A stretch of 64,000 nt of DNA from Escherichia phage JN02, in sequence record MT782071.1. One strand, written 5' to 3'. Every line of letters starts with the position of its first letter. Positions within the stretch are counted from its first letter, which is position 1. The notes under the pieces were generated by a model. It saw only the letters and a list, made by a program, of their open reading frames with translations. It was not told where the DNA came from and searched no databases. Positions 6,163 to 61,860 of this stretch are shown here, piece after piece. A program made the position numbers and the translations under genes.

Positions 6163-6591
6163 TTATTCCTTAAAATGTGCTTTCAACATTTGATACAAAG
6201 ACCATGCCTGGTCGGTATTTTCGATAGTAATCGTCATCACCGGAAATTCAGACAATTCGTCAAGTTCACCAGAATCTTGCTCTTCAGACGCTTGATACGG
6301 ATTTCCAACTTCGTCAAAGAACTCTGCTTCATTCGTAGAGAGCCAGATAAAGTTTTCATCAAGGATATCACCACCTGTTGCGTATCCAACCGTGCCAGTA
6401 GATGTTAAAATTTTAGTAGGACGTCCGAGATGGTCAACATCTAAAATTTTAAAAGGTTCCATGCCAAGACGTCGTGCATAAATCCCATTATCAGTGTGGT
6501 CTTTAATAAACTCTTCTTGGGCCCGTTTATCTATAAATTGGTACCATGAGTTAACGCGGAATTTATTAGCCATTAGTAAGTTTCCTTCCAA
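6163..6591 (-). CDS. hypothetical protein
   Basis: 142-aa ORF, tightly packed, co-directional. Confidence 0.4.
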
Positions 6592-6845
6592 TAAGTTGTA
6601 CCATTTTCAGTGATTTCACGGAAGATGCCATAGATAGGCATTTCGTCACCGAGTTTTTCGTAAACGTAAACCACTTCGGTGTAGCATAAAAATTCGGTCC
6701 AGTTTTTCTGTACAACAACTAAATCAGGATTAAACAGAACATCTTCAAACTCATCGATGTTTGAATCAGTAGTTACGTTTTTAATGATTTGACGTTTCAT
6801 AATATTCTCCTCTTGTTTTGATAGGTCTATAGTATCATAGACCAT
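6573..6845 (-). CDS. hypothetical protein
   Basis: 90-aa ORF; promoter-like element immediately upstream (6818..6848). Confidence 0.35.
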
Positions 6846-6857
6846 AGTTGTTGTACA

Positions 6858-7382
6858 TCATTTTAGCAAAATAAAATCAACTTGTTCTGCCAATGAACGT
6901 CTAAACATTAATTGACAACTTCCGAGGATGAAATCAGGTGCTTCATAGACCGCGATGTAGTATCCTTTAGCTTTCAAGAGTTCAACATCCACCTGGTCAT
7001 CAAACCATGCATAAACCGCGTCAACACTTTCAAATCCAAAATAGAACCCTTTAGCCCAATCTTCACTCAATTCAAATGTGTGCTCAATTCTATAGTATCT
7101 TAAGATATTTTGTTCAAGGAGTTTGTCTTCATTTACTGTAGGACGATTAGGGACATTATAGTTGTCGCCGTGATGGTAGAAGTTACCTGAGAGTATTCCA
7201 TGCTTATCAAGGAACTCCCATGTTTCTTCAGAGTTGTCGGTGCCCGACCAACCGTACGGCGAACGAGGTTCTTTATTCCAAGAGGTTTCCCAAATTCTGA
7301 CGGCTTTACCGTCTTCGATAGCAATTCCTGGTAATGATTCACGTTGAGTACAAAAACTACGTTCTACGCGGTAAACTAACAT
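6858..7382 (-). CDS. hypothetical protein
   Basis: 174-aa ORF with GGAGAA RBS; early promoter cassette upstream. Confidence 0.4.
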   Translation of the reverse strand: MLVYRVERSFCTQRESLPGIAIEDGKAVRIWETSWNKEPRSPYGWSGTDNSEETWEFLDKHGILSGNFYHHGDNYNVPNRPTVNEDKLLEQNILRYYRIEHTFELSEDWAKGFYFGFESVDAVYAWFDDQVDVELLKAKGYYIAVYEAPDFILGSCQLMFRRSLAEQVDFILLK

Positions 7383-7389
7383 ATTATTC

Positions 7390-7437
7390 TCCTCTGGTTG
7401 ATATGGTTATAATATCAAAACCAGAGGAGAAGTAAAC
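7390..7437 (-). promoter_or_regulatory. early sigma70-type promoter with inverted repeat (PeSL-like cassette)
   Basis: minus strand GTTTAC -35, 17-nt spacer, TATTAT -10; inverted repeat cctctggtt/aaccagagg with proximal arm covering the RBS. Confidence 0.5.
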
Positions 7438-7441
7438 AACT

Positions 7442-7861
7442 TTATGCGAAAGCAGCCGGGCTATATTTTTTAATTTGGAATTCAGGAACTACCATGAACT
7501 GTCCAGCGAAAACGATGTTATAAAGCTTAACACCATCTTCTACCCAACGGTCGCTAATAAATCCAGCGATTTGCTTAGTTTTCCACGGCGTTCCATCAGT
7601 TGCCGCAGCAATAGTGAATTCATGGTCTTTTTCAACAGAAACTGATCTGCATAGTCCCCATTTGAACGCTTTTTCTTCTGGTTCAATGAATTGGCTTGAG
7701 ACGTAGCCAATATTACCATTAGCATCACGAACTTTAACTTGGTTACGGCCAAAAACCGGATCACTCACAGAAAGAACTTCAACCAACTTCCCGGCAACTT
7801 TAGAGCGAGAAGCAACAGATACATATACGTAATCACCTGTAGAGAGATTTACAATATTCAT
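7442..7861 (-). CDS. hypothetical protein, member of tandem paralog triplet
   Basis: 139 aa; shares C-terminal motif DRWVEDGVKLYNIVFAGQFMVV with the two upstream ORFs. Confidence 0.45.
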   Translation of the reverse strand: MNIVNLSTGDYVYVSVASRSKVAGKLVEVLSVSDPVFGRNQVKVRDANGNIGYVSSQFIEPEEKAFKWGLCRSVSVEKDHEFTIAAATDGTPWKTKQIAGFISDRWVEDGVKLYNIVFAGQFMVVPEFQIKKYSPAAFA

Positions 7862-7870
7862 AATAATTCC

Positions 7871-8398
7871 TTAAGCTTTACGAGGAGACACATAGCGAGT
7901 GATTTCAGATTCTTTAACAACTCGGAAGTCACCTAAGAATACGATATTGTATAACTTTTCACCATCTTCAACCCATTGGTCACTAATGAAGCCACACATA
8001 ATATCAGTTTTGCTTGGATATCCGTATTCGTCGATGTAATCAAATTCTTTATCGGTCTGGAATTCAACGCCTTTGCAAAGGGCCCATTTAAACTGTGTAG
8101 TAGGCTCAACGATATCGTTTGAAGCAAATTGGACTCGTATATGTTTTTCAAGGAATTTAGGACTTACGTAAGCATACTGGGCATCTTGTCCGCCAAAACT
8201 AGGAATGATTCGAACTTTAACTTCTTTAATACGTCCCATGCCATTTGTGCGAAGTCCGACAACTTCAACCAGACGACCTGCGGCTTTAGACCGGGATGCA
8301 GTTGATACACGTTTAATTTCACCAATAGTAATCATAATTTTTCTCTCTTTGTTTAAGTTGAATTCATTATACTCCATCCATCCTTGGATGTACAACAT
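7871..8398 (-). CDS. hypothetical protein, member of tandem paralog triplet
   Basis: 175 aa; motif DQWVEDGEKLYNIVFLGDFRVV. Confidence 0.45.
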   Translation of the reverse strand: MLYIQGWMEYNEFNLNKERKIMITIGEIKRVSTASRSKAAGRLVEVVGLRTNGMGRIKEVKVRIIPSFGGQDAQYAYVSPKFLEKHIRVQFASNDIVEPTTQFKWALCKGVEFQTDKEFDYIDEYGYPSKTDIMCGFISDQWVEDGEKLYNIVFLGDFRVVKESEITRYVSPRKA

Positions 8399-8934
8399 TA
8401 ATTTAGAATATTAACTACTGCACTACGTGGAACCACACTAAAGTCACCGGCATGAACAACGTTCAGAAGTTCAACCCCGTCTTCAATCCACTGGTCAGTT
8501 ACCCAGCCACTTACCGGTCCAGCGAATGGTCGACGAATTGAAACTGCTTTACACAACAAGTCTGTAGGCTCAATAGGCTTAATCAGAGTACCGTACATAC
8601 AAGCGATATCCATATCAAAGTGGAGACCATCTTTAACAGGTGCTTCTTCAATCAACAGTTCAAAGTCGGTGCTTGGAAGGGCGGTAGTAGAAATTGTACC
8701 GTATGAATTTTTAATTTCTAAGAATAACCAAGGGCCTTCAACTTGTTTGATGAAGTTAACAATAGTGAAACTATTACCTTGAGTGGCACCTAAAATTTCA
8801 CAAAACTTTTCATAAGCTCGCACTGAAGCACCGTACCAGTTGATTTGTTTTTCGTCTTTCAGGATGTAAGTAGCCGTAGTATTGATATTCATAATGTTTT
8901 CCTGTTTGGTTAAGATAGAAAGATTATACTCCAA
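8398..8934 (-). CDS. hypothetical protein, member of tandem paralog triplet
   Basis: 178 aa; motif DQWIEDGVELLNVVHAGDFSVV. Confidence 0.45.
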   Translation of the reverse strand: MEYNLSILTKQENIMNINTTATYILKDEKQINWYGASVRAYEKFCEILGATQGNSFTIVNFIKQVEGPWLFLEIKNSYGTISTTALPSTDFELLIEEAPVKDGLHFDMDIACMYGTLIKPIEPTDLLCKAVSIRRPFAGPVSGWVTDQWIEDGVELLNVVHAGDFSVVPRSAVVNILN

Positions 8935-8954
8935 CCATCCTTGGTTGTAAACTG
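8908..8954 (-). repeat. 46-bp promoter cassette, copy 1 (near-identical to 50301..50346)
   Basis: gttaagatagaaagattatactccaaccatccttggttgtaaactg; minus strand gives GTTTAC -35, inverted repeat caacca/tggttg, TATAAT -10. Confidence 0.6.
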
Positions 8955-8957
8955 GTT

Positions 8958-9635
8958 TTATCGCTGTTTTACACTTAACGGGTCAGGATTCTCAGGGACA
9001 TCTTCAAGGCCAAGCGCATAACGCTGAGCGTATTTTAACATCAAAATATCTTTAGCACAATCATGAATACTATCATGGGCAACGAATCCTTTTAGCGTAC
9101 CCATCGGTAATGGACACATACTTAATCCTCGTGTCAACGAGTAAGCTTCGATTGCCGTACGAATATCGCGTTGAGCCCAGAATTTAACCGGTTCTAATTT
9201 ATCAGTATCAATCTCGGGTTCAAGAACACCTTCATCACGATAGAGGTCACGAATCAAATCGACCAAGATCGGGAAGTCAAAGCTCATACCACGGCACCAC
9301 ATCTGTGATTTCCATTGGTCAACTTTATTAGCTCGGCAATAATCTAAAAAGATTTTAATACCTTCAAGCGTAGTGACATCGTCTTCAGACGGAGCCAAGT
9401 TTTTACGCGCTTCAGCCGATTGTTCTTTCCACCATTTCATAGTGGATTTAGCGAAAACTCGCTTCCCTTTCTGAGAAGCTAAATTAAATTTAATTCGCTT
9501 ACCTCGTTGAACAAGTTCTTCAAATGATTCAACAACTTCAGGGTCGGAATTATATGCAATAACCGCAAGGTCAATAACAGCCGCTTTTGATGTATTGCCG
9601 AATGTTTCAAAATCTATAATAACATCAGTGCTCAT
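8958..9635 (-). CDS. dexA: exonuclease A (DEDD 3'-5' exonuclease)
   Basis: 225 aa; IIDFETFG...AVIDLAVIA and GFVAHDSIHDCAKDILM match T4 DexA as recalled. Confidence 0.85.
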   Translation of the reverse strand: MSTDVIIDFETFGNTSKAAVIDLAVIAYNSDPEVVESFEELVQRGKRIKFNLASQKGKRVFAKSTMKWWKEQSAEARKNLAPSEDDVTTLEGIKIFLDYCRANKVDQWKSQMWCRGMSFDFPILVDLIRDLYRDEGVLEPEIDTDKLEPVKFWAQRDIRTAIEAYSLTRGLSMCPLPMGTLKGFVAHDSIHDCAKDILMLKYAQRYALGLEDVPENPDPLSVKQR

Positions 9636-18489: not shown

Positions 18490-18775
18490 CTGTGATTTCG
18501 GTTACGATATCTTTGTTATCGAAATTAGGGTCACAATACAAAACATAATTGTACTGCATGATACCGCCAGACTTAAGTTGTTCAACAACTTTATTAACCA
18601 TATTAGGACGGTCTCGTTTAGTGATGTTCATGATATCAGAGAAGATTTGTTGTTCAACATCTTCTTGATCTGCAGTCATTGACCACTCACAGAGGTCTTT
18701 ATCATAACCTGCCGTAACTGGAGCTGGTGCACATGATACTGCAAGTAAGATTGCTGCCAATGATAACTTTTTCAT
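18482..18775 (-). CDS. sp: Spackle periplasmic protein
   Basis: 97 aa; signal peptide plus GYDKDLCEWSMTADQ...SGGIMQYNYVLYCD matches T4 Sp as recalled. Confidence 0.8.
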   Translation of the reverse strand: MKKLSLAAILLAVSCAPAPVTAGYDKDLCEWSMTADQEDVEQQIFSDIMNITKRDRPNMVNKVVEQLKSGGIMQYNYVLYCDPNFDNKDIVTEITGE

Positions 18776-18800
18776 TTTAACTCCTTAGTTGATTTGATAG

Positions 18801-18834
18801 GACTACTATACTATAGTCCATCTATAATGTAAAC
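18801..18834 (-). promoter_or_regulatory. early promoter with inverted repeat
   Basis: minus strand GTTTAC, 17-nt spacer, TATAGT-like -10; IR ggacta/tagtcc. Confidence 0.4.
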
Positions 18835-19835: not shown

Positions 19836-19983
19836 ATGCTTTAACTAATGCTTTGTTCACTTCAGCAAGTTGTACCGTAACCCACTCGATTTCTTCGCGA
19901 TCACCTGATAACATGATATCTTTAGTGAACATCTCACCGCTTTTAAACCAACCGATAAAAGTAACTTTAGTTAATTTGCTCAT
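19792..19983 (-). CDS. dmd: Dmd antitoxin (inhibitor of host RnlA/LsoA toxins)
   Basis: start taken at internal Met of the 70-aa ORF; FIGWFKSGEMFTKDI...AEVNKALVKAF matches T4 Dmd as recalled. Confidence 0.7.
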   Translation of the reverse strand: MSKLTKVTFIGWFKSGEMFTKDIMLSGDREEIEWVTVQLAEVNKALVKAFVNDEKVFEADFRG

Positions 19984-20297
19984 ATTTCCTCGCAAAATGC
20001 CCATTCAGCGTGATAAACTGTAGCACCTTTAGTATTATTCATTTGAACTACGTCTACCGGAGAAATTACTCGATAGAGACGTGGTTCACCTCCATAAGAG
20101 CGTGCTGCTCGTCCTGCATAAATCTTTGCTAAACCGATATCTTCAGTAAAGAATACACGATCCAAGTTTTTCTTACGTCCAGTTTCAGACAGAACTCCTG
20201 TTTCCTCAGGAGGACAAAGCATGTTTTCGATGTTAGCTGAACTACTTGAACCGTGATAAAAAATCTTAAATTCTGCTTTACAATCGATGGTTTTCAT
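19980..20297 (-). CDS. hypothetical protein
   Basis: 105-aa ORF with GGAGAA RBS. Confidence 0.35.
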   Translation of the reverse strand: MKTIDCKAEFKIFYHGSSSSANIENMLCPPEETGVLSETGRKKNLDRVFFTEDIGLAKIYAGRAARSYGGEPRLYRVISPVDVVQMNNTKGATVYHAEWAFCEEI

Positions 20298-20300
20298 TTT

Positions 20301-20352
20301 GTTCTCCAGTAGTTGATAGGTCTATAATAACACAACTACTGGAGAAGTAAAC
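20301..20352 (-). promoter_or_regulatory. early promoter with inverted repeat (PeSL-like)
   Basis: minus strand GTTTAC, 17 nt, TATTAT; IR ctccagtagttg/caactactggag with proximal arm containing the RBS. Confidence 0.5.
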
Positions 20353-20727
20353 TTAAAAACGTAATTTAGATATATCTGCGTTGATTTCGCTTTGGTTTGC
20401 GTCGTATGCAATTAAACGAACCGCTTTAGATGGGTCATTCAATGCATAGAAATGATGGAACATTGCTCGAACGATATCACCATTTACGAGTTCTACCTGG
20501 ATAGGAGAACCTTTTTCGAGTTGGAAATGTTCATAAGCTTTGATGGTTCGCAGATAATCAAGTTTTTGATTTCCGGCTCCAACAATTTGTACGATACGTT
20601 TGCCCATGTTTTCCATACGAGATACAATAGTTTTAGGAGCAAGAATAACGTAGGTTGCCAGCGGAGAAACTACTTCAACAGTTGTGTTTTCGGTGATTGC
20701 AGTAAAAATTGCTTGAGACATATTCAT
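20353..20727 (-). CDS. hypothetical protein
   Basis: 124-aa ORF. Confidence 0.4.
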   Translation of the reverse strand: MNMSQAIFTAITENTTVEVVSPLATYVILAPKTIVSRMENMGKRIVQIVGAGNQKLDYLRTIKAYEHFQLEKGSPIQVELVNGDIVRAMFHHFYALNDPSKAVRLIAYDANQSEINADISKLRF

Positions 20728-20740
20728 AGTGTTTTCCTCT

Positions 20741-20786
20741 TGGTTTGTGTAAGTACATCATATCATGCCTAGAGGAAGATGTAAAC
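20741..20786 (-). promoter_or_regulatory. early promoter
   Basis: minus strand GTTTAC, 18-nt spacer, TATGAT. Confidence 0.45.
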
Positions 20787-43279: not shown

Positions 43280-43628
43280 TGCGTTTGATAAAATTCACTT
43301 CACTTACTGAAAGGTCTTTAAGACCGATTGATTCTAAACGCTGAGTAAGCGTCAACATTGGGATATAGTCCCAATGTGTTTTAGACGTTTGGTAAGTACG
43401 GACGCCATTAGCAATTTCAACGTTCAAATCGGAAATGGTAATGAATATCAGACGTTCGTTGTTTACATTAAGAGTTAGAACAACTTTCTTTGAATCTAAA
43501 CTAATCATTTTGTTTTCCTCTATAGTAGATGGTTTAATCTTAACACATCTATTGAGGATGTAAACTGTTTTATGAAAATATTTTCGATTTGAGAGGGGCA
43601 CAAGGAGATAGTGAAGTGAAGATTCCAA
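43260..43628 (-). CDS. hypothetical protein
   Basis: 122-aa ORF. Confidence 0.35.
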   Translation of the reverse strand: MESSLHYLLVPLSNRKYFHKTVYILNRCVKIKPSTIEENKMISLDSKKVVLTLNVNNERLIFITISDLNVEIANGVRTYQTSKTHWDYIPMLTLTQRLESIGLKDLSVSEVNFIKRIVSINL

Positions 43629-49336: not shown

Positions 49337-50286
49337 TATAACACCTCAATGGCATTTCGTAAACCATCCGCTTTTGCATTCAGAGCTTTTAATGATTTAG
49401 TTTGTTCTGCAATCTGGGCTTCGACTTCTTTCAGACGAGATTTGAGATATTCGCGTTCTTCTCTTAAGTTATCAACTTTTTCTACTTTAGGTTCTTTAAT
49501 AGACTTAGGTTTATACGTATTAGGGTTCTTCAGCTTAATTTTAATACGAGAACTGAATAACATTGAACCGTTATCTTCGGTTTCGTCATACATTTCTACT
49601 ACGTCCATGATTTTTAACATCATACGAAGTTTATAAGACAGCGAACGAACGGTTTTGTTGTGCTTATTAATTTCTTCGGCTTTCATTGTACCGAGATTAC
49701 GTGAGTAGTAATAAGGAACCTGGATATCAATTGACAATGATGCGTTACCATTGCCAGTTGGTTTGAATACTGCAGTAACCCAATCCTTAACATGAACCGT
49801 ATTTGTACGGTCATCGCCGCCTGTGAATAATTTACGTGAATGTTTAAAAAGCATATTCACTTGGTTATTGAATTCACACGCAAATTTATCAGCAAATTTA
49901 GTTTCAGGAATGGTAGATAACCAATCAGCTAAATGAGTCTTTTTAACATCGTTAATAATAGTAAATTCAACCAAATCAGTTTTAGATGTCACAGATTTAA
50001 TAAAGCTTGGCTTCATAAAGTTTTTAATGTTATCACGAGCCACAGTAGAAGATAATAAACGAGAACGTTTAAACCATTGAAGCAGCGTCCCTAATGAATG
50101 AGAATACGCATTCTGAGTATCTTTACAGATATGATTTTCTTGACCTGTGTATGTACCAAAATCTCTAAGAATACCACTTACTACATTTCGGTGTGGAACA
50201 TCAAATCCTAATGAACCGGAAGCACGTTGGGCATGAACGTTAGCGATAAGACCTGCAAAATAATCAATGTAATGTGAACGTGTCAT
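49336..50286 (-). CDS. hypothetical protein with C-terminal coiled coil
   Basis: 316 aa; C-terminal heptad-rich segment LREEREYLKSRLKEVEAQIAEQTKSLKAL. Confidence 0.4.
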   Translation of the reverse strand: MTRSHYIDYFAGLIANVHAQRASGSLGFDVPHRNVVSGILRDFGTYTGQENHICKDTQNAYSHSLGTLLQWFKRSRLLSSTVARDNIKNFMKPSFIKSVTSKTDLVEFTIINDVKKTHLADWLSTIPETKFADKFACEFNNQVNMLFKHSRKLFTGGDDRTNTVHVKDWVTAVFKPTGNGNASLSIDIQVPYYYSRNLGTMKAEEINKHNKTVRSLSYKLRMMLKIMDVVEMYDETEDNGSMLFSSRIKIKLKNPNTYKPKSIKEPKVEKVDNLREEREYLKSRLKEVEAQIAEQTKSLKALNAKADGLRNAIEVL

Positions 50287-50300
50287 AATATTTTCCTCTC

Positions 50301-50346
50301 GTTAAGATAGAAAGATTATACTCCAACCATCCTTGGTTGTAAACTG
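50301..50346 (-). repeat. 46-bp promoter cassette, copy 2 (near-identical to 8908..8954)
   Basis: same 46-mer gttaagatagaaagattatactccaaccatccttggttgtaaactg; early promoter with inverted repeat. Confidence 0.6.
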
Positions 50347-52397: not shown

Positions 52398-52925
52398 TTA
52401 TGCGTGAACCGTCTTTAAACGTTCTTCAAATTTCCGAAGAGTACTAATACGTTCTGCTTTCTGTTTTGTATAGTTTGCAATACGTTCTGAAGTGAGAGCG
52501 TATCGTTCATTTACTGTTTCTTTCATGAAGTCAGGGATTTCACGAGAAGCTTTAATTTCATCAAACTTATCGAGTACTGCCTGGTCTTCAGCGATTAAAT
52601 TTTCGTACATCTCGATATCTTTCTTGATAAACTCGATATCTTCCTGGGTTACTTTGGATAAACGAGATGCTTTATCCTTTTTGTACTGCTCGTTAGTTTC
52701 ACGAGACCAGAATAATGTACGTTTTTTGTTAGTGTTTTTGTAGACTTCCACAATTCCAACTGAATCGATGATAACAATCCAATTCCAACGAGATTTGAAA
52801 ATCTGACCTCCGTCCACGGTAATCTCGTTACCATAAGCAACGTCATTAAAGAACTTGCTTTGTGCTTCAGATTTAAATTTACCGTCGTTATAATTTACCA
52901 GGTTGAAAATATCTTTAGCGTTCAT
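52398..52925 (-). CDS. hypothetical protein
   Basis: 175-aa ORF with GGAGGT RBS. Confidence 0.4.
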   Translation of the reverse strand: MNAKDIFNLVNYNDGKFKSEAQSKFFNDVAYGNEITVDGGQIFKSRWNWIVIIDSVGIVEVYKNTNKKRTLFWSRETNEQYKKDKASRLSKVTQEDIEFIKKDIEMYENLIAEDQAVLDKFDEIKASREIPDFMKETVNERYALTSERIANYTKQKAERISTLRKFEERLKTVHA

Positions 52926-52930
52926 GTTTT

Positions 52931-52981
52931 ACCTCCAGTAGTTGATAGGTCTATAATAACATAACCATAGACCTTGTAAAC
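52931..52981 (-). promoter_or_regulatory. early promoter with inverted repeat around -10
   Basis: minus strand GTTTAC, spacer, TATTAT; IR aggtctat/atagacct. Confidence 0.45.
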
Positions 52982-56987: not shown

Positions 56988-57151
56988 TTTACCATACTCG
57001 TTTCAATAAGATTCACTATGCCGTTTACCATGTTATAAGTAAACATCGGATAATTGTATTGTACTACAACATAAGCGATAAGCAAAAGTTTCATTTTGTT
57101 CTCCATTTGTTTTGGTAGGATTACTATATCATAGACCTACCAAGACGTAAA

Positions 57152-57442
57152 CTACCGATTGTGTTTTAAAATGCTATAAAGAGCTTCTACTTGGCTTGCA
57201 TCCAGGTAAATAACATCATCATCTTGCTCAATGGAAATCCCACCAGTATTACCTGCAACAAAATTACATTCGCATACTTCAACTGGGCGGTATACGTCAC
57301 CAACTGGATGCTCAGGTTCCAGAACAATCACACCATTTTCAAAATTACCACTTGGGTCATACAACATTACAGTTTCCTCGCTAACCATGAAAAGAATAAA
57401 CCAATTAAAACAGGCCCTATAGCCATTGTTAACCAAGCCCAA
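57152..57442 (-). CDS. hypothetical protein
   Basis: 96-aa ORF. Confidence 0.35.
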   Translation of the reverse strand: MGLVNNGYRACFNWFILFMVSEETVMLYDPSGNFENGVIVLEPEHPVGDVYRPVEVCECNFVAGNTGGISIEQDDDVIYLDASQVEALYSILKHNR

Positions 57443-57458
57443 GGTTCAAGATAGTAAA

Positions 57459-57650
57459 TCATCTCATGCTCCTGTGCCAACAGTTTCTTGGTTCACGTTT
57501 AAAAATTTCATCACGCATTGATTGACAACCAACACAAAACATCACTACCATATCATCTTCAGCGCTTTCAGGTAAAAGTTCAAGTACACCGTCTTCAGAT
57601 TTTCCAGTATAATCGTAAAGCATAATATCCTCACATAATCTCGTTAACAT
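57459..57650 (-). CDS. hypothetical Cys-containing small protein
   Basis: 63-aa ORF. Confidence 0.3.
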   Translation of the reverse strand: MLTRLCEDIMLYDYTGKSEDGVLELLPESAEDDMVVMFCVGCQSMRDEIFKREPRNCWHRSMR

Positions 57651-57849
57651 ACATTTGCAATTCGGTGTGGGCTTCGGCCATCTTTTTCATAGCTCTGTTA
57701 ATGTCGATGTCTCCATCTTCGCAACCATGAGCATTTTCCCAATCAGACACCGCATTAGCGTACTCTTCAATCAAAAACATCAACTTAGAAATCTTTTCTT
57801 TACGTGTCATAACGTTCTCCTCTAGTAAGTAAAGACTACTATAACACAA
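57631..57849 (-). CDS. hypothetical small protein
   Basis: likely start at the internal MTRKEK (57810) with GAGGAGAA RBS, since the promoter cassette 57811..57866 overlaps the annotated N-terminus. Confidence 0.35.
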   Translation of the reverse strand: MCYSSLYLLEENVMTRKEKISKLMFLIEEYANAVSDWENAHGCEDGDIDINRAMKKMAEAHTELQMYVNEIM

Positions 57850-57875
57850 CCTGAGGAGAAGTAAACTGCTAAATG

Positions 57876-57905
57876 CAAAAAAGCCCCAACCGTAAGGAAG
57901 GGGCT
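57876..57905 (-). terminator. rho-independent terminator downstream of rI
   Basis: minus strand AGCCCC...GGGGCT stem followed by TTTTTTGCATTT. Confidence 0.55.
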
Positions 57906-59240: not shown

Positions 59241-59464
59241 TTAGGTTCACCTTCTTTAACGAAATCTGGGTAAGGGTAAAATCCTGAGTAAAACCCTTCA
59301 CCTTTATGATTGCTACAACCTTTGTTCGAACAGTAACACCAATAATCAAAATCACAAGCCATTTCGTCATTGCATAAAGCAAAAACTACAGGCCATTCGC
59401 ATTTTTCGCATTTAGCACCTGTAAGAATTTTTGTTTGACTCATAGCCATGTCACCTTTAAGCAA
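59237..59464 (-). CDS. Cys-rich small protein
   Basis: 75 aa; CEKCEWP...CYCSNKGC. Confidence 0.35.
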   Translation of the reverse strand: MLKGDMAMSQTKILTGAKCEKCEWPVVFALCNDEMACDFDYWCYCSNKGCSNHKGEGFYSGFYPYPDFVKEGEPK

Positions 59465-59667
59465 TATTCTTCTACATGTTGTTTACGGCCTTTCTTATCA
59501 ATAAAGGTATATTCAACGAATGTTCCGATGTAGTCTTTATCTACATCATGTGGACTATTAATTGGACATTTGGTACGACAAATGCGTTCCCATTGACGAA
59601 TAATTACTGCCTTATTCTTTGGGTCATATGGATGTGGATAATGTATATTCATAATAATGGTTCCCAA
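59440..59667 (-). CDS. hypothetical small protein
   Basis: 75-aa ORF. Confidence 0.3.
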   Translation of the reverse strand: MGTIIMNIHYPHPYDPKNKAVIIRQWERICRTKCPINSPHDVDKDYIGTFVEYTFIDKKGRKQHVEEYCLKVTWL

Positions 59668-61003: not shown

Positions 61004-61462
61004 CTAGATTTTAATCACTGCTTTAGAAGCTTTTCCTGGTAGTCGTTTACTGTTAATAATAGCCATTCTGCATTGAAGAGTCTTCATTTTGAATGCTGGA
61101 TTTTCGCGACAGACTGTGAGTCCTAACCAAAGATTTCCATCAGTTATTTCTAAACGGCCTGGGCGATATTCGACGCCTTCGACAAAATCTTCATCAACAT
61201 CTGGACGTGCCGGCATTGATAAAAATTCTGCAACTTCTTTAACATGATTTTTTACTTTACGAAATAATTCAAAAACGTAGTTCTCATCTATTTCTCTCTG
61301 GATGGCACGATCTAAGAGATGTTGAGAATACTTGATATGAAAGCCTGGTAGTCCAAGAGACTTTGCAGCATCTTTTATACCGGCATTTATTTTGCGGAAC
61401 TCCGTTTCAAAGATTCGACGGAGTTTATTACGGCGGATAAAAACGTCTGAATTGATAGTCAT
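61004..61462 (-). CDS. regB: RegB site-specific endoribonuclease
   Basis: 152 aa; size and position as T4 RegB. Confidence 0.75.
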   Translation of the reverse strand: MTINSDVFIRRNKLRRIFETEFRKINAGIKDAAKSLGLPGFHIKYSQHLLDRAIQREIDENYVFELFRKVKNHVKEVAEFLSMPARPDVDEDFVEGVEYRPGRLEITDGNLWLGLTVCRENPAFKMKTLQCRMAIINSKRLPGKASKAVIKI

Positions 61463-61470
61463 TTTGATTT

Positions 61471-61519
61471 CTCCTCTAGTTGACAGGTCTATAGTAACAC
61501 AACTAGAGGAGAAGTAAAC
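61471..61519 (-). promoter_or_regulatory. early promoter with inverted repeat (PeSL-like) upstream of regB
   Basis: minus strand GTTTAC, spacer, TACTAT; IR ctcctctagttg/caactagaggag, proximal arm contains the RBS. Confidence 0.5.
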
Positions 61520-61860
61520 TACTCTTTGAAAGGAATTAACTTTTTAACTGCTTTAGATACTTCGTCACGAACCTGGTGGAAGTTCTTGAGCTGTTCAAGG
61601 CGTTGTTCGTAATACGCAATCTCATCTTCTTCAAGACAATCGTCAGCGTCTTCTTTCAGATATGCCTTGTACTCATTAAAGAGGGCCCATAGGCGATTCT
61701 CAAAGTCATCAAGGCTTTGAATTTTCTTGTGCTTCGGAACAAGGCCAAAAGGATTGCTTTCAGTTATGCGTCGAGATGCTTCATAATGAGTTCCAAAGCC
61801 TGATAGGATTTGAGCCATTAGTATTTTTCCTCTGGTTGAAATACCGCACGACAAGCCCAC
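61519..61860 (-). CDS. hypothetical protein
   Basis: 113-aa ORF. Confidence 0.35.

Follow-up and report, generated by a model that had tools for sequence, protein, structure and literature searches.

Early-promoter cassettes of an RB69-like phage contain an inverted repeat that may hide the Shine-Dalgarno sequence on read-through transcripts

At 7386-7440 of a 64,000-nt stretch of Escherichia phage JN02 DNA (MT782071.1; this whole stretch is called the window below), a putative early promoter and the start of a gene share an inverted repeat, one arm of which lies inside the promoter and the other over the ribosome-binding site. The locus raises the question of whether this arrangement ties translation of the gene to transcripts that start at its own promoter. 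Our analysis reveals that early-promoter hairpin cassettes of this kind are real, conserved and, probably, functional. From their anatomy, the energetics of folding and the selection on pairing, all documented here, we infer effects on translation and on RNA cleavage by the phage endoribonuclease RegB. We estimate a probability of about 0.55 that the cassettes act as translational insulators that bind expression to the local early promoter, RegB gating being a probable second effect.

The window comes from an RB69-like T4-type phage. Over positions 6500-9500, megablast finds 96-98.6% identity to Mosigvirus genomes (GADS24, HX01, the O157 typing phages and also RB69), and the window as a whole is collinear with RB69 from position 1 to about 63.8 kb, broken at eight breakpoints. 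All relevant genes are carried by the minus strand. Four of them are served by a cassette: a motB.2 homologue of 174 aa (6858-7382; cassette 1); an RB69ORF040c-like ORF of 105 aa (19980-20297; phrog_2110; cassette 2) directly upstream of dmd; a mobD.2a homologue of 59 aa (57631-57810; DUF7438; cassette 3); and regB, the gene for the GGAG-specific endoribonuclease, of 152 aa (61004-61462; Pfam REGB_T4, E 8.8e-69; phrog_1323; cassette 4). The RB69ORF040c-like ORF has no Pfam match and is kept at 55-99% identity in 50 T4-like contigs of IMG/VR. Neither known RNA families (Rfam, gathering thresholds) nor tRNAs (ARAGORN) were found in the window.

The four sites share the sequence GTTTACTTCTCC. With up to one mismatch allowed, it has four matches in the window, all of them exact and all on the minus strand; shuffled sequences give an expectation of 0.25, and four matches were reached in none of 100 shuffles. 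At each site the minus strand reads GTTTAC, a 17-nt spacer and TAnnAT, as the earlier note had claimed, which is an early-type promoter by sequence match only. The -10 hexamers are TATTAT at sites 1 and 2, TATAGT at site 3 and TACTAT at site 4, always with TG immediately 5'. A consensus promoter scan lists sites 1-3 and flags the TG there, site 4 falling under its 9-of-12 threshold. At least 12 nt are common to the four copies, and sites 2 and 4 are alike over most of the cassette. The first base of the -35 is 55-57 nt from the ATG, and GGAGAA is separated from the ATG by 4-6 nt at every site.

All four cassettes are on the minus strand: cassette 1 at 7380-7437 (-35 at 7432-7437, -10 at 7409-7414, ATG at 7380-7382); cassette 2 at 20295-20352 (20347-20352, 20324-20329 and 20295-20297, respectively); cassette 3, which is weak, at 57808-57866 (57861-57866, 57838-57843 and 57808-57810); and cassette 4 at 61460-61519 (61514-61519, 61491-61496 and 61460-61462). 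The 5' arm is the opening 13-14 nt of the spacer, directly after the -35, and the 3' arm ends in the GGAGAA Shine-Dalgarno (SD) sequence. Thus, TTCTCCTCTGGTT (7419-7431) faces AACCAGAGGAGAA (7387-7399) in cassette 1, TTCTCCAGTAGTTG (20333-20346) faces CAACTACTGGAGAA (20302-20315) in cassette 2, and TTCTCCTCTAGTTG (61500-61513) faces CAACTAGAGGAGAA (61469-61482), which includes the SD of regB, in cassette 4; these are perfect inverted repeats of 13, 14 and 14 bp. In cassette 3, the arms TTCTCCTC (57853-57860) and GAGGAGAA (57815-57822) form 8 perfect pairs. The placing of one arm between -35 and -10 and the other over GGAGAA, as described before, is therefore true of all four sites, whereas the repeat length of 11-14 bp given with it applies to sites 1, 2 and 4 and not to site 3.

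Perfect inverted repeats of at least 13 bp with loops of 10-45 nt occur at sites 1, 2 and 4 only in the 64-kb window, and five 13-mer windows have an inverted-repeat match, against a mean of 0.065 in dinucleotide shuffles. The loops of the cassette stems are 19-23 nt long, and both the -10 and the predicted start of transcription are within them. The predicted +1, 7 nt past the -10, lies 3-4 nt 5' of the 3' arm. Because this start falls in the loop, locally initiated transcripts are predicted to lack the 5' arm and to carry the ribosome-binding arm only, in agreement with the earlier note.

Fold energies, which had been suggested as a check, set three of the stems apart from shuffled sequence: cassette 1 folds at -23.9 kcal/mol (z -7.3), cassette 2 at -21.7 (z -5.5) and cassette 4 at -21.6 (z -4.9), while cassette 3, at -13.5 (z -1.4), is indistinguishable from shuffles. 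The cost of opening the SD, computed as the ensemble cost of a single-stranded SD, changes with the start of the RNA. For RNA beginning 60 nt upstream of the -35 it is 18.8, 15.6, 7.7 and 13.4 kcal/mol at sites 1-4, and for RNA beginning 150 nt upstream it is 18.0, 15.1, 7.3 and 15.4 kcal/mol, compared with 4.1, 2.6, 2.3 and 3.1 kcal/mol for RNA from the predicted +1. The idea that read-through RNA with both arms could sequester the ribosome-binding site is thus supported by prediction at sites 1, 2 and 4 (13-19 versus 2.6-4.1 kcal/mol). By the same measure, the T4 hairpins of gene e and I-TevI cost 13.4 and 12.4 kcal/mol, and masking of the SD on read-through RNA at these three sites is predicted to be at least as strong as that by the gene e hairpin. 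With their longer loops, the cassette stems would fold more slowly than the gene e hairpin, whose loop is 8 nt.

Read-through RNA is expected at sites 1, 2 and 4 from the arrangement of the surrounding sequence. Each of the three directly adjoins an upstream ORF on the same strand, with 10, 6 and 5 nt, respectively, between its stop codon and the 5' arm, and at site 4 the -35 shares its first base with this stop codon, TAG. Upstream promoters on the same strand are 0.4-2 kb away, and no convincing terminator was found between them and the three sites, the only matches being two weak 5-bp terminator-like ones upstream of site 4. Just upstream of the weak cassette 3, after rI, lies an intrinsic terminator (57876-57905, minus strand; AGCCCC...GGGGCT and a T run), whose long, interrupted loop let it escape the consensus terminator scan. 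The same association is seen more broadly: of 109 distinct cassettes that have no terminator upstream, 30 carry a strong spacer-leader duplex, defined as one at or below -15 kcal/mol, compared with 1 of the 23 that stand behind a terminator (Fisher p 0.015, for sequences that are partly related), and this lone strong stem looks like the result of a false terminator call. Orthologues of the RB69ORF040c-like ORF that stand behind a terminator have just 5-6 residual pairs left.

The interpretation in the earlier note is borne out wherever it could be computed, and these features suggest how the cassettes may work. Initiation at the local promoter would give a leader of about 20 nt with the 3' arm only, so that the SD would be free and the gene translated at once. 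RNA started upstream would have both arms, and the resulting helix of 13-14 bp would hide the SD from 30S subunits. With the SD masked on read-through RNA, expression would track the gene's own immediate-early promoter and would end with the shut-off of early promoters, even if read-through RNA persists.

The principle of such a control is not new, as it is a variation, with an early promoter swapped for a late one, on a control already known in T4. Long transcripts of e, soc, 49 and I-TevI have the SD or AUG locked in a helix, and a promoter inside the hairpin region gives rise to a translated RNA without the 5' strand; the hairpins of e and I-TevI block translation of long transcripts, by about 100-fold in the case of e (PMC3014915). 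The window cassettes resemble these genes in that their SDs are predicted to be buried on upstream-started RNA, at a cost in the same range, and in that RNAs from the internal promoter are predicted to lack the 5' strand. They differ in the type of promoter, which is late and gp55-dependent (TATAAATA) in the T4 genes but early and sigma-70-type here, with the 5' arm in the -35/-10 spacer, and in the loop, which is about 8 nt in the known T4 hairpins. Since the internal promoters are early-type, the cassettes are a variant of the e/soc/49/I-TevI set rather than members of it: a late internal promoter delays translation until late, while an early one would confine it to the earliest transcripts. 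A functional analogue is found in bacteria, where CT-rich anti-SD motifs within sigma-54 promoters silence read-through translation by pairing with the ribosome-binding site (Levy et al., bioRxiv 10.1101/086108). Those motifs are 3-5 nt long and at most 25 nt from the SD, whereas the window helices have 13-14 bp, belong to phage early promoters of sigma-70 type, are located some 32 nt before the SD and have been maintained through covariation. A full-text literature search, which mostly did not reach the older subscription-era T4 papers, found no earlier description of an early-promoter/SD hairpin.

Spacer-SD pairing is not confined to the window. In a whole-genome scan of T4, the spacer pairs with its own leader past the 1% non-cognate quantile at 7 of 26 early-promoter candidates (alc, alt.-3, ndd.4, regB, nrdC.8, denV and motB.2); the corresponding counts are 3 of 18 in the window and 4 of 28 in RB69. 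Valerie et al. reportedly noted possible stem-loops before denV and orf61.9 in 1986. The T4 regB stem, in which UUUUCCUCUUGACUG pairs with CAGUUAAGAGGAGAA, has 15 pairs, two of them G.U, and that of T4 motB.2 has one G.U pair and a one-base bulge; the inner sequence of both is unlike that of the window. In T4 ndd.4 (166749-166807), the annotated start at 166764 is inside the predicted stem, and a GGAGG-N8-ATG start at 166749 is a better fit to the cassette layout.

The regB loci in IMG/VR have compensatory inner stems in four lineages: CTCTAGTTG with CAACTAGAG, CTCTTGACTG with CAGTTAAGAG, CTCTTTATG with CATAAAGAG, and CTGTAAG with CTTACAG. The spacer-SD stem is nevertheless dispensable, as two regB lineages (L018/L019 and L021) are without it. 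L018/L019 have a hairpin of 7 bp, GGGCCAT/ATGGCCC, about the -10 in its place, and the L021 locus has a terminator upstream. Relatives of motB.2 in IMG/VR amount to three near-identical loci and are uninformative.

A MAFFT alignment of whole cassettes was out of structural register, and an alignment of the arms only, from 13 cassettes, was used instead. In this alignment, which is biased towards structure because its register is set by complementarity, 89% of cells are paired, compared with 73% in shuffles (0 of 500 reach the observed value) and 44-55% with slid partners. Both sides have changed in 9 of the 14 pairs; the part of the stem that does not vary and is always paired is the core of the SD. 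An unbiased sample was obtained from IMG/VR by collecting every match to the pattern GTTTACTTCTCC-N28-40-GGAGAA, in which the outer six pairs alone are fixed. Among the matches with a -10 and an ATG, the helix extends by 5-10 more pairs in 11 of 24 distinct sequences, with GGTTTGACAT, TCTTTTCT, TGTAGATG and TCATG as new inner sequences, whereas the 10 matches that lack promoter context all stop after at most two further pairs. Internal mismatches in the stems, which are defined by Watson-Crick pairs, are G.U in nine cases, A.C in two and other in four (binomial p 0.03); the G.U excess comes mostly from the T4 cassettes and is weaker once the duplicated alc/alt.-3 cassette is removed. That varying inner stems are kept complementary, partly through G.U pairs, points to selection on the pairing as sense-strand RNA, rather than as DNA or antisense RNA.

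An alternative role is suggested by the promoter-early stem-loop (PeSL) cassettes of T4-type phages, to which the earlier note had likened the four sites. In such a role, the stem-loop would attenuate or terminate upstream transcription and the repeated cassette would let the ORFs on either side be shuffled by homologous recombination; that the stem overlaps the SD would be incidental. The likeness is evident in the format, as the PeSLs of RB49/phi1, PST/T4 and nt-1/KVP40 are repeated intergenic cassettes of early promoter, stem-loop, SD and start codon, and one RB49 stem-loop showed the behaviour of a strong terminator when assayed with lacZ; termination or attenuation and recombination are the functions proposed (Arbiol et al. 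2010, PMC2839356; Comeau et al. 2014, PMC4122927). In the window, a stable promoter-associated stem-loop is present at three sites, the fourth being weak. Junctions of indels or replacements fall at the edges of PeSL cassettes, and two of the eight RB69 breakpoints of the window are at cassettes (61523, at the -35 of regB, and 43485-43519). Near-identical cassettes also occur at unrelated loci (8952 and 50344 in the window; alc and alt.-3 in T4), and the rarity of strong stems behind a real terminator is predicted by attenuation as well.

The likeness does not extend to the stem-loop itself. All five published PeSL stem-loops are upstream of the transcription start, situated before or around the promoter and in T4/PST just upstream of it, and none pairs with the SD; they are read as terminators and recombination sites, with no mention of pairing with the ribosome-binding site in either paper, and the words ribosome and translation are absent from the 2010 one (PMC2839356, PMC4122927). 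No T run follows any of the window stems, their tails are A-rich and the terminator scan called none of them terminator-like; an identity as intrinsic terminators was judged unlikely for lack of a T tract, and one as RNase III sites was set aside because 13-14 bp is probably too short. The loops of 19-23 nt also argue against termination, as does a 3' arm that always ends in the SD, with an SD core that is invariant and always paired. Recombination, for its part, needs neither complementary arms nor compensatory changes nor G.U pairs. We thus consider it rather unlikely that the PeSL-type role is the whole explanation, while a recombination role probably exists in addition to masking and is compatible with it.

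The close spacing of upstream stop codons and 5' arms at sites 1, 2 and 4 raises the possibility of translational coupling, in which the SD on read-through RNA stays masked until a ribosome that ends the upstream ORF melts the outer 5' arm, making downstream translation proportional to upstream translation. In the fold model, a ribosome at the upstream stop that covers 10 nt (forced single-stranded) lowers the opening cost to 5-7 kcal/mol at sites 2 and 4, and with 13 nt covered the cost falls to 1.4-1.9 kcal/mol. Orthologues of regB retain the spacing, with about 8-12 nt from the stop to the start of the 5' arm. Site 1, however, is still masked at 12.3 kcal/mol with 13 nt covered, and tight spacing is general in a densely packed genome. 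Moreover, T4 gene e is in a gap of about 37 nt after nudE and is yet repressed about 100-fold on long transcripts (for the repression, see PMC3014915). Coupling therefore appears unlikely as the main function, and masking on read-through RNA continues to be the reading that we prefer.

A further aspect is the link to RegB. This enzyme cuts GG^AG in early SDs, with GGAGRAYARAA as the consensus of strong sites; RNA structure protects from cleavage, and in T4 in vivo RegB cuts its own SD and the GGAU SD of motB.2 (PMC3014915, PMC1702504). The 3' arms of the cassettes consist of GGAG and an A-rich tail that fits this consensus: over the seven positions of the consensus tail, the SDs of sites 1-4 match at 6 (GGAGAATAATA in cassette 1), 7 (GGAGAACAAAA in cassette 2), 4 and 4. 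RegB/S1 sites are defined as unstructured, whereas those of the cassettes are predicted to be exposed on local RNA and helical on read-through RNA, an alternation that is not described in PMC1702504 or PMC3014915. Given that exposed SDs should be good RegB sites and that RegB spares structured ones, the same switch would decide which RNAs RegB inactivates, and regB itself would be expressed in a short, self-limiting pulse. The early appearance of RegB protein in a T4 omics paper is consistent with this, without being decisive.

The same facts, together with the presence of regB itself among the four genes, could be taken to mean that the hairpin acts on RNA decay only, by keeping RegB and exonucleases away from the GGAG or from the 3' end of the preceding message, the effect on translation being unimportant. 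A helix that buries the SD at 13-19 kcal/mol necessarily blocks 30S binding too, and a decay effect is for this reason more easily understood as another outcome of one switch than as an alternative to it; as the sole function, it has a low probability. A DNA-level element, either a cruciform with an effect on promoter activity or an operator bound by protein on both sides of the -10, is highly improbable despite the symmetry of the repeat about the -10, as the inner half-sites vary while complementarity is kept (TCTAGTTG, AGTAGTTG, TCTGGTT, TCTTGACTG, TCTTTATG, TGTAAG, GGTTTGACAT, TCTTTTCT and TGTAGATG) and recognition by one common protein would call for an unvarying sequence, the 9 to 2 asymmetry of G.U over A.C is meaningless in duplex DNA, and loops of 19-23 nt disfavour cruciform extrusion.

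The insulator and its RegB effect can be combined into a wider reading, which we put forward tentatively, as one that is less likely than not to hold in full. In this combination, the origin of a transcript would set both its translation and its RegB sensitivity: local immediate-early RNA would first be translated, after which RegB would cleave its exposed GGAG, and read-through RNA would undergo neither. The switch would make regB a pulse generator, would operate at about a quarter of T-even early promoters (judging from the 7 of 26 in T4) and would account for part of the selectivity of RegB for early messages. If masking works as proposed, polycistronic read-through would be kept from contributing to the expression of a defined group of T-even early genes, among them regB, motB.2, denV and alc, and synthesis of their products would track only the brief activity of their own promoters. 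Such cassettes would be the early counterpart of the hairpins with late promoters in e, soc, 49 and I-TevI. Their stem-loop would have a concrete role other than termination, and there would be a structural reason for RegB cutting some GGAG sites on some transcripts only.

Other early promoters in the window show related arrangements. In a further scan, about 18 minus-strand promoters of the T4 early type share the spacing between -35 and ATG, and two of them are weaker members with spacer-SD pairing. At 43506-43565 (minus strand), the spacer sequence ATCCTCAATAGATG pairs with CATCTACTATAGAGGA, with a bulge (-13.2 kcal/mol, z -3.4), and the predicted SD opening cost is 7.2 kcal/mol on read-through RNA versus 1.4 kcal/mol on local RNA. 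The pairing partners at 20725-20786 (minus strand) are TTCCTCTAGG and CCAAGAGGAA, and it is from the promoter of this member that read-through enters cassette 2. A second class of cassettes, at 57094-57152, 52923-52981 and 18773-18834 (all minus strand), has an inverted repeat of 8-11 bp across the -10 that stops short of the SD, and T4 has a class with a repeat across the -10 ending before the SD at mobD.2, dmd and others.

Two further cassettes on the minus strand, at 8892-8952 and 50284-50344, are identical over about 45 nt (CAGTTTACAACCAAGGATGGTTGGAGTATAATCTTTCTATCTTAAC), each with a small hairpin within the spacer, and part exactly at the SD; from their sequence, they look like a duplicated or exchanged regulatory module. 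The comparison with RB69 reveals several differences in the neighbourhood of cassettes and elsewhere. The segment upstream of the regB cassette has been replaced (61523-61813), with the junction exactly at the -35, and the junction at 43485-43519 is inside the cassette with the weaker stem at 43506-43565. The interval 57193-57534 is 341 nt long in the window and 73 nt in RB69, and a 410-nt segment at 59248-59659 is absent from RB69.
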